A DNA stretch of 26,818 nt from Gonapodya sp. JEL0774. Lineage: Eukaryota. Location: positions 62,001 through 88,818 of the forward strand of contig JADIIX010000092.1 of NCBI GenBank assembly GCA_027604505.1. The letters are read 5' to 3'. Positions 6,850 through 10,799 of the stretch are shown piece by piece (positions within the stretch are counted from its first letter, which is position 1; every line of letters starts with the position of its first letter). The notes beneath the pieces are model-generated. The model saw only the letters and a list, made by a program, of their open reading frames with translations, was not told the origin of the DNA and did no database searches. Made by a program: the position numbers and the translations under genes.

Positions 6850-8741
6850 CTAAGCGCTGACCGTGGCCATCTGGTTTCGCAATTCTCGTGTCTCCGTCTG
6901 AGTGAAGACAATGGAACTCTTCCTAAATCCGTTGAAGTTACTGGCAGCGCACAATGTATAAGCGCCCATCTGATAGTCGTTTAAGAGAGGCTCAGTTGGG
7001 TTGGATGATGTGCTCGAAAGGACTTCGTCACTCACGCTACTAAAATACAACCAGTCACCAACGTCTAACACAGGAAGCTCGGCTGTTTTGGCGATACAGT
7101 CGATAGAATCACAAGTCTGGGCAACGGCGAGGTTAAGTTACATTTGCTCGTTCGACATGGGAAGCCGACTTGTTATCTCACCGGTCCCCACAACGAGCAC
7201 GGGAACTTATGTTCGACAGCAGAAGACTCGTACAGGTACTCGCCATCTTTTTTAAGCACTTTGGGAGATGCGACAGCATGATCAAACATGATGTTGTTGA
7301 AGCTCCCGTACATCCCATCATTGATGTAGTCTGCAAATATTGAACGAATGCCAGGTAAGACGCTGATACAAGAATCAAAATAAACAGAGTACCTACACAT
7401 GAATGATGCATTTTGGTAGTCGCCTTTTGAGACCTGCTCGAGAACCTCTTCCGACTGCCCTTCGTCACCATTGAGGGGTATCACTCGACGAGCAACTACG
7501 TTCACGGCAAGTGTGAAGGCTGCAGACACGAAGTATCGCCCAGGTTCCGCGATGACTTTCACAGATGGAGGGAAAAGCTTGTCGATAGTAGGAGCCAGGG
7601 AGGTAGCAACGTCCTCAAATGTAATTCCATCACTGTCCGCACCAGGAAAGCCGCCGCCAACTACACAAAGCGTCATTGTTATTCACAAAGTGGGGTGATA
7701 AATTGAGGTGTCTCCTTGCTTACTGTCGAGGAGGCGCATATTAAATCCCTGAGCCTCTCCTTCGTCGAATACCTTGCGTGCAGTTATGACAGCGTCACGG
7801 AAGGCTGTGGCGTCGAAGCACCCACTGCCGACGTGGAAGCTACATCCGAGCAAAATTCTAAGTCACCATATGAATCAATCTCCACTAACTCCCGAGCTCA
7901 CCTGACGCCAACAACATTGAGGTCCAACTCTTTGGCGAGTCGAAGCAGGATAGAGGCAGAGCTCGGTGAAGCGCCAAACTTCAACCCGAGCTTACACAGA
8001 GACTTGGAGTCATCCGCGAGAACTCGGAGAATGAGCTCCGCTTCTGGGTGATTCTTCTTCACTTTGCGAAGCTCGTCTGCGTTGTCAAAGGTAAGCATTT
8101 TGACTCCGTTGACTGCTGCGTATTTCAAGTGGGAAACCTGCTTGCACGGATTCGCGTAGATAATCTCTGATGGTGATACTCCGAGAGCGAGAACCGTCTC
8201 GATTTCCGCCTATAAAAAATACCACAGCAAGGGTGAAATCACGACTCAGTTTGATTGTAAATCGCATATACGCACCCTGCTTGCGCAGTCGAAACCAGCT
8301 CCAAGAGCAACGAGTTGTTTCACAACGGTGCGGTCCGGGTTGCATTTCACAGCTGAGCAAGATTGACAGATACAGGTATTTCCGTCAATGATGGTTCTAC
8401 CCAGAATCGGTGCAAATTTCCCGCTCACCATAAAACGGCTTCACCCGCGGCAAAAGTCTGTTCCACTTGACATACTGCTTTACGATAGAGCCAAGGTCGC
8501 AAACAAAGAATGCATCCTCGTCTCCCTCCACACTGCCAGAATTTTCTGTCCGAGCGCGGAGAATCTTGTCCACGGACCTCTGCTCGCTGAACAAGTCCGA
8601 GAAGTCCAAGTCCGAGTCGACCTGAGCGCTCTGGAGGATGGTCTTTGGGTTTGGTGCAGATTGCAAAGACTTGGTCTTCACAATGGTTTGGTCAAAGGGG
8701 GCGATGCCCGATAAGTTGGCGGTTTCGATTTCGGCACCCAT
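6850..8741 (-). CDS. SPE1: Ornithine decarboxylase (PLP-dependent, fold III); 8 exons
   Basis: Exons 8741-8429, 8352-8276, 8209-7902, 7839-7724, 7660-7397, 7330-7182, 7116-7036 and 6969-6850. Motifs: PFYAVKCN (PLP lysine), GFDCAS, IIYANPCK, KFGA, SFHVGSG, DIGGGFPG, IAEPGRYF, YINDGMYGSF, WGPTCDS (catalytic Cys), MGAYT, FNGF. Confidence 0.96.
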
Positions 8742-8769
8742 GTGTATGACGTGCTCGGTGTGGGGTATG

Positions 8770-9010
8770 TCACCAAGGAGGGGCAGCTGGATGAAGTGGA
8801 GTCGGGGGATGAGTTTTATATCAAATATATGGATAGGTTCAGGCGGGAAGGAGGGAGGGCGAAGATGAGTCCAAAGTCGCAAATGGCGAAGGTCGGTGAA
8901 GGTGAGACATTCGAGACATTCCATCGCACGTTCGCACATGGTAAACCTTCCAGAAGACACCCACCAAAGGCACCGTTACCGCCGATCACCCTTTTACGGA
9001 ATTCGGGAAT
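8770..9010 (-). promoter_or_regulatory. Non-AUG (AUU) spliced uORF (uCC) in the ODC 5' leader, ending PPW-stop
   Basis: Minus strand: ACA-ATT-CCC-GAA-TTC-CGT-AAA-AGG..., with ATT at 9010-9008 and A at -3. Phase-1 donor G|GTGGGT at 8964, acceptor CATCCAG| ending 8787, then CT GCC CCT CCT TGG TGA (stop 8772-8770). Product is IPEFRKRVIGGNGAFAAPPW*, ending 28 nt before the ODC AUG. Confidence 0.8.
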
Positions 9011-9279
9011 TGTGTAGCGCAGAGGCGAGCTCGATGGCCCCTCTGCTCTTGTGAGAAAAGAAAGTTGGTGTGCTGAGCGCGACTCTCTCCGTCTGGATCG
9101 ACGAGGAGGAAGGTCGAGCGCGAGGACGGAAAGGCTCTGAAAGTCAAGGCGCGAGAGCAGACCGCGTGGATGCTTTCGCTGGGAGAATGAAAAGTGGAAG
9201 TTTGAAAAGAGAAACCCCGCTGTCAGCTCATTATTCTGAAATTTCGAAGCAGGAACAAAGAATAATATGCAATAATATA

Positions 9280-10799
9280 TCACATCACAGGTTCCTTCCC
9301 CGTCAAGAGTTTAAATGCTTGAACGTATTTATCTAGTGTATTACGCACGACGTCTTCCGGTAACTCTATCCCGTGGGTCTTGTCAAACCCAATCTTTTCG
9401 AGGTAATCTCGCAGGTACTGTTTGTCGAAACTGAGAAGCAGAAACGTAACGAAGAGAAAGAGAATTGAGCATCGATTTTATCCAAGGTTCAACCACATTC
9501 CAGGAAGATTCGAACCTATCTTGAGATCGTCCTGGCTCGTACTTGTCTCGAGGCCAGAAGCGGGAAGAGTCTGGTGGAGGAACGCTTGAGATACGCCTAG
9601 GCGCGACAGCCACCACAAGCGACTGCAAATCCATCACCAAATCATGTGATTCCTCACCAGGAGTCAGCACTTCGTCCGCAAGGATCAATTCACCCTCCAG
9701 GTCGACCCCGAACTCGAATTTGGTATCTGCAATTATGATGCCCCGTTCTGCGGCATAGTCGCGAGCCTGGCGATGGAGGGACTTCGATGAATTTGTGGTG
9801 CGGGCATAGAGACATAGAAAGTGACACGGCACGCAGACCTTTCCGTACAGTTTGACAGCAGCCCCAGACATTTTCTGTGCGAGTTCGGCTCCCACCAGTG
9901 TGGCTACTGTAAAGGATAGCAAGAGATGAGGAGGGCCCCGGGCATGATCAATCAATCGTGTGATATGGTCACCTTTACTAGGGTGAATGTTTTCGTCTGA
10001 AAATCAGCTCAATAGACTGTTAGTTAGGATTCGCGAGAGACAAAGGGGATGAGGATGAGAATAACGTTTACTCACCATGCTGTCCGAGTTCTGCCTTTGT
10101 GGACGGGGTGAACAAGGCTTCCGGGAGTTTCGAGGATTCCTTCAATCCCGATGGAATCTCAATGTCACAAATCGTGCCTGGATCCCTCCGCTGGGGTTAG
10201 CCAACCGGACCCGGAATTTAGGCGACAGAGAACAACGGTACCTTTCTTTTTGTACTCTGCCCACCCAGAACCTGAAAAACAGAAACCCTTGATGATTGAG
10301 CAACGGGGAGACGCCGGCGAACGGATCAAGGTGGCTCAACATACCGGCGACATACCCTCGGACGATTGCCTCCACTGGCAAGATCTTGACCTTGCGAACA
10401 AGCATTACGCGCCCTTCCAGCTGATCCTTGTACTTTTGCACGATTGGGGGCATTTTGGCAAGGTCGGTGGCGATGAGGTGATTTGGGAGTACATCAGCCA
10501 GAAGACTGAACCAGAAAACCGAGAGTTGAGTGAGAACTTTTCCCTTGCCGGGGATTCCCTGTCAAATCGACGACACGGCGAGAATGGCAAGCCGATGCAG
10601 GACTATGAGGGTCATATGGGCACGAGGATATGTCCAGTGATTTGCGTACGTTCTTCATGATGACATCAAAAGCAGAGATTCTGTCCGTTGCGACAAATAG
10701 GAGAGAGGAATCGTCGATTTCATACAGGTCTCTGACTTTTCCGCGGGCGACGAGTTTGAGTTCTGGGCAGTGGGTTTCTGTGATTGCGGGTCCAGTCAT
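9280..10799 (-). CDS. ADE1: SAICAR synthetase (phosphoribosylaminoimidazole-succinocarboxamide synthase); multi-exon
   Basis: Motifs [66 protein letters not shown]. Stop TGA at 9282-9280. Confidence 0.95.

Follow-up and report, generated by a model that had tools for sequence, protein, structure and literature searches.

The tested example of an upstream conserved coding region in the leader of an ornithine decarboxylase (ODC) homologue is reportedly that of vertebrate AZIN1, which is said to have been the subject of work by Ivanov, Loughran & Atkins in 2008 and by Ivanov et al. in 2018. Upstream conserved coding regions (uCCs) of ODC homologues were divided into four groups in a 2010 review and published as four independent origins (PMC2811004). 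AZIN1 was the only one of them to have been tested directly as of that review, and the shortest, with 22 codons, was found in the Zygomycota (PMC2811004, section 6). The Pro-Pro-Trp (PPW) motif of AZIN1 is described as a polyamine-dependent stall site in the passages of PMC11550727 and PMC9082881 that deal with it, and the yeast HOL1 uORF, in the corresponding part of PMC11550727, as a polyamine sensor of the Pro-Ser-stop type. The word "intron" is absent from the main text of PMC2811004, whose section 6 names neither chytrids nor Monoblepharidomycetes. Our search of the literature listed no paper on an ODC uCC in chytrids or Gonapodya, or on the positions of uCC introns; Ivanov 2008 (PNAS) and Ivanov 2018 (Mol Cell), with their supplements, may cover both subjects.

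Here we describe a candidate element of this kind in the leader of the ODC gene of Gonapodya sp. JEL0774, a member of a lineage outside the four groups of the 2010 review (PMC2811004). The putative uORF resembles AZIN1 and the other animal uCCs in its candidate start, an AUU in good context with Pro as the next codon, in the Pro-Pro-Trp near its end and in its location 5' of an ODC homologue; it differs from them in size (20 codons, whereas the animal loci examined have about 45-50) and in its stop codon, which directly follows Trp where the animal frames continue for three more residues, and its host is an intact ODC whereas that of AZIN1 is an antizyme inhibitor. Its likeness to the uCCs of Basidiomycota lies in the ATT start (with Ile-Pro-Asp in three of six), a length there of 24-25 codons and a phase-1 intron, predicted in Gonapodya, placed two codons before Pro-Pro, but the mushroom frames end in Glu-Pro-Pro-stop without Trp, carry an additional phase-2 intron, have a peptide middle unlike that of Gonapodya and are 229-360 nt away from the ODC AUG, compared with 28 nt in Gonapodya. 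The uCCs of Zygomycota (Mortierellaceae), known here from transcripts alone, are also short, non-AUG and endowed with Pro-Pro-Trp, the distance from start to Pro-Pro being 16 codons versus 17 in Gonapodya, but they start with ACG and extend eight residues past Trp. Finally, the HOL1 uORF, as far as it is presented in the relevant part of PMC11550727, is likewise very short, stalls ribosomes at or next to its stop codon and is read out via eIF5A; its host gene and motif are different, however, and it would fit the Gonapodya locus mainly if the donor of the leader intron were 8929 (see below).

The ODC gene and its neighbours

The window, that is the whole stretch of DNA analysed, is 26,818 nt long, and all of the features described below lie on its minus strand. 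The ODC gene (6850..8741) has seven introns of 62-76 nt. In protein comparisons, one of its exons is 100% identical to a Gonapodya sp. JEL0774 protein and 89% identical to the ODC of G. prolifera. The encoded protein carries the Pfam domains PF02784 and PF00278, and scores 444 bits against human ODC versus 322 bits against antizyme inhibitor 1. In the alignment, Lys and Cys occupy the positions of K69 and C360 of human ODC, which are known catalytic residues. Given the higher score to human ODC than to antizyme inhibitor 1 and the retention of both residues, we assign the host gene to ODC, in agreement with a first-pass annotation of this DNA that had described an ODC with intact catalytic residues. 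An antizyme inhibitor, which is an ODC homologue that has lost its activity, is ruled out by the Lys and Cys kept at these positions.

The NCBI model (P0001) starts ODC at 8741 and continues into the downstream EH-domain gene by means of a 99-nt intron (6861-6763) that skips the ODC stop at 6850. As the ODC of G. prolifera stands as a separate protein of 451 aa, this fusion is probably an annotation error. On the other side, the outer limit of the ODC leader is set by the stop codon of the SAICAR synthetase gene (9280..9282), located 270 nt from the ATT discussed below. The NCBI model of the SAICAR synthetase gene (P0121; 372 aa, 10799-9280) seems to treat several in-frame introns as exon sequence and to rely on one or more questionable junctions. 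Elsewhere in the window, a frame at 21507-22055 matches the retroviral-polymerase SH3-like domain PF25597 and is likely to be a retrotransposon remnant.

A candidate uORF in the ODC leader

The candidate uORF is situated 5' of the ODC homologue, in a region whose transcription from position 9010 onward we infer. It would start at an ATT (9008..9010) that has A at -3 and C at +4 and is followed by Pro and Glu codons, extend over 15 codons and 1 nt (8965..9010) if the donor is 8964, and be joined by the predicted splice to a second exon part (8770..8786) made up of the end of the split codon and Ala-Pro-Pro-Trp-TGA. The joined frame comprises 20 codons, with Ile-Pro-Glu at its start and Ala-Pro-Pro-Trp-TGA at its end; its stop is separated from the ODC ATG at 8741 by a spacer of 28 nt (8742..8769) and is in another frame than ODC. 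The first-pass annotation had placed the ATT at 9010, a GTGGGT donor at 8964 and the end of a CAG acceptor at 8787, with a span of 178 nt, all of which we reproduced from the sequence. It had also proposed that removal of this intron takes out every AUG from the AUU to the ODC start, and the four ATGs present between 9010 and 8741 (8939, 8924, 8919 and 8910) are indeed all inside the predicted intron. A C/T-rich tract 5' of the ATT (9047..9066), judged by eye, may represent a promoter or a transcription start region; a tract of a similar kind is also found ahead of the SAICAR synthetase ATG.

The Pro-Pro-Trp-TGA at 8781-8770 places a pair of prolines close to the C-terminus, as PPW does in AZIN1. 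The whole window contains a single PPW-stop, compared with 0.11 expected, and 10 of 100 shuffles contained it at least once on either strand; its weight rests on its position in the leader of ODC. The start motif, taken alone, is not rare (16 occurrences in the window versus 16.2 expected).

The predicted leader intron

The splice prediction places a phase-1 intron of 178 nt at 8787..8964, the final 160 nt of which are free of AG. With a score of 6.1, the acceptor at 8787 is the best among 14 AG sites scanned from 9120 to 8742, and the AG-free run that ends there is the longest in the window on both strands; shuffling the bases of this 160-nt stretch 20,000 times left it AG-free in 0.4% of cases, although this test was made after the feature had been seen. 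A branch-point-like YTRAY is located 38 nt 5' of the acceptor (8820..8824), where it overlaps the start of a TATA-like heptamer (8820-8814), and a YTRAY is found within 50 nt of the acceptor in 6 of 13 model introns. In the unspliced leader, the PPW frame is shut by a TGA 14 codons upstream with no near-cognate start in between, so that the motif would be readable only with acceptor 8787. Altogether, we consider this acceptor to be well supported, albeit indirectly.

Among 18 model introns, which measure 60-91 nt, the longest has half the length of the predicted intron; shorter options are offered by donors 8929 and 8937. We also tried a two-intron model of the mushroom type and abandoned it, since AG does not occur between 8947 and 8787 and the use of 8947 would call for a purine-rich intron of 33-51 nt. 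Since neither the intron (z -0.59) nor the 9060-8900 region (z +1.29) folds better than shuffles, we claim neither a hairpin-assisted start nor an intron shortened by structure.

The choice of the donor was approached by testing 12 GT sites, of which seven are in phase 1, four in phase 0 (8989, 8929, 8917 and 8908) and one in phase 2. Seven of the 12 leave the AUU in frame with PPW; the in-frame non-AUG start thus holds with the seven phase-1 donors and fails with 8929 or 8989. The alternative donors that had been said to preserve the frame (8979, 8973 and 8946) are in phase 1 and do reach PPW-stop, but this earlier account omits the phase-0 sites, one of which, 8929, scores like 8964. Scores were derived from matrices built on 13 and then on 18 introns, five of them from the SAICAR synthetase model that is partly wrong in appearance. 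Depending on the width of the matrix, 8929 and 8964 score 7.7 and 6.9, 7.0 and 7.0, or 6.2 and 8.0, respectively, which ranks 8929 first, first-equal or second. Donor 8964 is the only candidate to combine G at -1 with G at +5, found in 12 and 17 of the 18 model introns, respectively. The GTGGGT hexamer is as frequent in the window as expected (12 seen, 12.5 expected); for the neighbouring EH-domain gene, the NCBI model uses a GTGGG donor. We favour 8964 as the most likely donor, at slightly better than even odds; 8937 and 8973 would retain the same AUU-PPW logic.

A cluster of elements at 8924..8939, recognized from the sequence and from donor scoring, would support a different arrangement. 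It includes ATG 8939, which has A at -3 and is in the ODC frame if the leader is unspliced, and the alternative donors 8937 and 8929. Were the intron real but spliced from 8929, ATG 8939 would open an 8-codon AUG uORF ending in the same Pro-Pro-Trp-stop, the AUU would turn into the start of an in-frame ODC extension, and the resulting short AUG sensor would resemble the yeast HOL1 uORF. In line with this possibility, 8929 is top or tied in two of the three matrices of varied width and also top in the 13-intron matrix, the intron would be shorter (143 nt), ATG 8939 has the favourable A at -3, and AUG-started versions of the uCC exist in vertebrate ODC (PMC2811004). The C at -1 of this donor is seen in only 4 of the 18 model introns, however, and its use would reduce to mere coincidence an ATT-Pro start that matches the starts of animal and mushroom uCCs. 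Moreover, a good-context upstream AUG blocks most downstream initiation under the established rules of scanning, and one located 28 nt 5' of ODC would block most ODC synthesis constantly. We therefore regard splicing from 8929 as unlikely.

Pro-Pro-Trp and Pro-Pro-stop frames in other ODC leaders

We queried 16 of the 64 parts of a metagenome collection with 32 aligned ODCs, most of them of early fungal origin, and the best 80 of 581 loci were placed by a tree from which six AT-rich, probably viral loci (L070, L071, L073 and L075-L077) were left out. No Monoblepharidomycetes were found among the best 80 of the 581 loci from these 16 parts. In each leader we searched the 400 nt nearest the ODC start for PP-Trp or PP-stop frames, excluding L061, the 5' end of which is cut, and four leaders of less than 100 nt. 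Ten of the 16 fungal leaders have such a frame (1.7 expected), as do 14 of 21 leaders of the animal-side clade (1.5 expected), some members of which may not be animals, and one of 38 other eukaryotic and virus-like loci (1.6 expected). Scans of prokaryotic and viral ODC loci, which contain no fungal loci and served as controls only, yielded 3 of 79 (5.3 expected) and 7 of 80 (2.3 expected), respectively. Several of the viral loci look like near-duplicates, and their count indicates that the shuffle expectation can run low. Counted as independent lineages, the ten fungal frames amount to only about four. The N-termini of 120 ODC proteins contain no PPW, and mis-joined gene models thus yield no extra uCC sequences.

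Among the leaders of other zoosporic fungi, the motif is found in one of four, L002. This transcript, which the tree places together with chytrids and Gonapodya (support of 0.81), has no AUG in its 326-nt leader and displays an ACG 19 codons before PPW. An ACG-started frame of 28 codons with Asp-Pro-Pro-Trp at positions 197-283 of this transcript is a second candidate zoosporic uCC. The motif is absent from L001 (Anaeromyces clade; 391 nt), L005 (115 nt) and L007 (155 nt), the last two of which are perhaps cut short, and the fungal leaders L015, L031 and L054 have no PP-Trp or PP-stop frame. L003, which clusters with Mortierella alpina, and L004 both show an ACG 16 codons ahead of PPW, and L036 has a Glu-Pro-Pro-stop frame. 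The mushroom clade consists of six loci, including L023, which shares 78-79% identity with ODCs of Agaricales. As in the Gonapodya candidate, an ATT with a purine at -3 and a Pro codon after it begins 7 of the 14 PPW frames on the animal side and two of the six mushroom frames, ATA-Pro taking its place in one more mushroom.

A predicted intron position common to Gonapodya and mushrooms

The mushroom transcript L023 contains a 25-codon ATT frame that starts with Ile-Pro-Asp and ends with Gly-Glu-Pro-Pro-stop. Five genomic loci of the mushroom clade encode the same type of peptide, of 24-25 codons from matching ATT or ATA codons, once two introns of 51-67 nt are removed; the search patterns were modelled on L023, and the fit is therefore partly by construction, but this transcript itself lacks both introns. 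The second of the mushroom leader introns is in phase 1 and is located two codons ahead of Pro-Pro in all five genomic loci. Provided that the Gonapodya intron is real, acceptor 8787 is in the same position and phase. A plain pattern, YAG-N5-Pro-Pro-TRR, matches the five mushroom leaders, with any match in 14 of 240 loci, and occurs once in the window (0.33 expected), at the Gonapodya site.

Introns in the mushroom ODC coding sequences were placed by spliced alignment blind to those of Gonapodya. An intron at 104/phase 1 is found in all five of the loci that cover this site and another at 359/phase 1 in five of six (357/2 in L062), both of which are among the seven positions of Gonapodya, and on this evidence the ODC gene keeps intron positions over the distance from Gonapodya to mushrooms. 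The same spliced alignment revealed no position in common with Gonapodya in L009, L015 and L054. We estimate that the uCC intron would match by chance at about 2 positions in 57, or about 3.5%, and more often if both introns had been gained at a favoured site. The Gonapodya peptide has little in common with those of mushrooms and Mortierella beyond Ile-Pro, a few basic residues and Pro-Pro. The C-terminal type of mushrooms, W-S-S-V-R-G-E-P-P-stop, is absent in Gonapodya with only Pro-Pro in common, and because of this difference the Gonapodya uORF is not filed in the Basidiomycota group of uCCs.

Proposed mechanism and alternative readings

Our preferred reading, to which we give a probability of roughly 70%, is that the ODC leader contains an intron-joined uORF running from AUU to Pro-Pro-Trp-stop that would sense polyamines and thereby restrain ODC translation, the last steps being drawn by analogy from AZIN1. 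What has been shown are the sequence elements, the intact ODC and the comparable frames in the ODC leaders of other fungi and of animals. An AUU-started, spliced and PPW-ending uCC was already the core of the first-pass annotation; comparative evidence now speaks for it, while the donor is undecided and neither splicing nor size appears unusual. Transcription would start upstream of 9010, and the intron ending at 8787 would be removed, most likely from 8964, together with all upstream AUGs. If the locus behaves like mammalian AZIN1, most scanning ribosomes would pass the AUU at low polyamine concentrations and initiate at the ODC AUG. At high polyamine concentrations, eIF5A would be hindered and the ribosome would stall at Pro-Pro-Trp beside the stop codon; scanning ribosomes would then queue over the AUU some 54 nt upstream, initiate there more often, and ODC synthesis would drop.

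The leader could instead lack an intron altogether, with transcription starting just after the TATA-like heptamer at 8820 and a leader of about 50 nt, in which case PPW-stop would be a product of chance or a start-less relic. This heptamer, one of 12 matches on both strands of the window, lies within the proposed intron, in a pyrimidine-rich region such as promoters can be; this richness could also account for the absence of AG, and the intron would be an outlier in length. Three coincidences would nevertheless be needed, namely a PPW-stop in an ODC leader, a good acceptor at the mushroom position and an in-frame ATT-Pro upstream, which in our view makes an intronless leader quite unlikely. 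A further alternative accepts that the uORF is spliced and translated but takes it to be a fixed damper or a trigger of mRNA decay, devoid of a polyamine response through eIF5A and ribosome queuing. Suggestive of such a role are the stop straight after Trp, unlike in animal uCCs, the Ala before Pro-Pro where Glu is common in animals and mushrooms, and a direct test that, as of the 2010 review, concerned AZIN1 only (PMC2811004). Yet the motif itself, PPW, is the one described as the polyamine-dependent stall site of AZIN1 in the pertinent passages of PMC11550727 and PMC9082881, and ODC is the first enzyme of polyamine synthesis, so that we hold a fixed damper to be very unlikely. Least credible is an unspliced, transcribed leader with ODC made from ATG 8939 and bearing a 66-residue N-terminal extension: although no stop interrupts the ODC frame between 8975 and the first coding intron and the -3 base of ATG 8939 is better than that of ATG 8741, open runs of 66 codons occur in 14% of shuffles, the extension frame has no Pfam match, and AVKCN would be preceded by 170 residues compared with a median of 96 and a maximum of 138 in 100 Met-started homologues (88 in G. 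prolifera), none of which has so long an N-terminus.

Class assignment and origin of the element

Returning to the preferred reading of a spliced, AUU-started sensor, its location and motif make the Gonapodya element very probably a uCC, and as such a new member, in a further lineage, of the class known from Ivanov et al. Neither splicing nor small size distinguishes it. Its description as unusually compact (20 aa) does not stand, 20 codons being barely under the 22 of Zygomycota (PMC2811004) and the 24-25 of mushrooms, nor does the notion that its splicing is unusual, given that mushroom uCCs carry two introns. Should the element prove real, it would bring a known feedback switch governed by polyamines to the Monoblepharidomycetes, a lineage outside the four groups of PMC2811004, and would allow the ribosome-queuing model to be examined on a natural uORF of very small size, with an AUU about 54 nt from the stall site and a stop directly after Trp. 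The mechanism itself is already known, and the sole point beyond routine is the common intron, which makes a single versus multiple origin of uCCs testable.

The intron in common with mushrooms hints at one ancestral fungal uCC, contrary to the four independent origins published. A broader scenario, which we put forward tentatively and at somewhat less than even odds, would have the uCC arise once, before early zoosporic fungi split from the mushroom line and perhaps before fungi and animals split. The phase-1 intron would then be a molecular fossil kept along with two ancient ODC coding introns, the proposal of four independent origins would be wrong at least within fungi, and the 20-codon form of Gonapodya would combine a PPW stall of the animal type with a stop of the mushroom type.

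Other conserved elements in ODC leaders

Besides the uCC, mushroom leaders share another conserved element, which lies between it and the ODC start (approximately 260-355 in L023; also in L059, L068, L079 and L080). A 2-nt length difference in this element breaks any reading frame; together with the complementarity of its ends, this is suggestive of an RNA stem. The leaders of the protist-like loci L014, L016 and L025 have in common a short stretch without Pro-Pro that reads Lys-Ser-Ser-Ser-Trp-Ser in one frame and is possibly another kind of leader element. Finally, L015 and L054, which belong to a basidiomycete-side clade without PP frame, carry a nearly identical 40-nt element (at about 2460-2505 and 2170-2215, respectively) 300-500 nt 5' of ODC.
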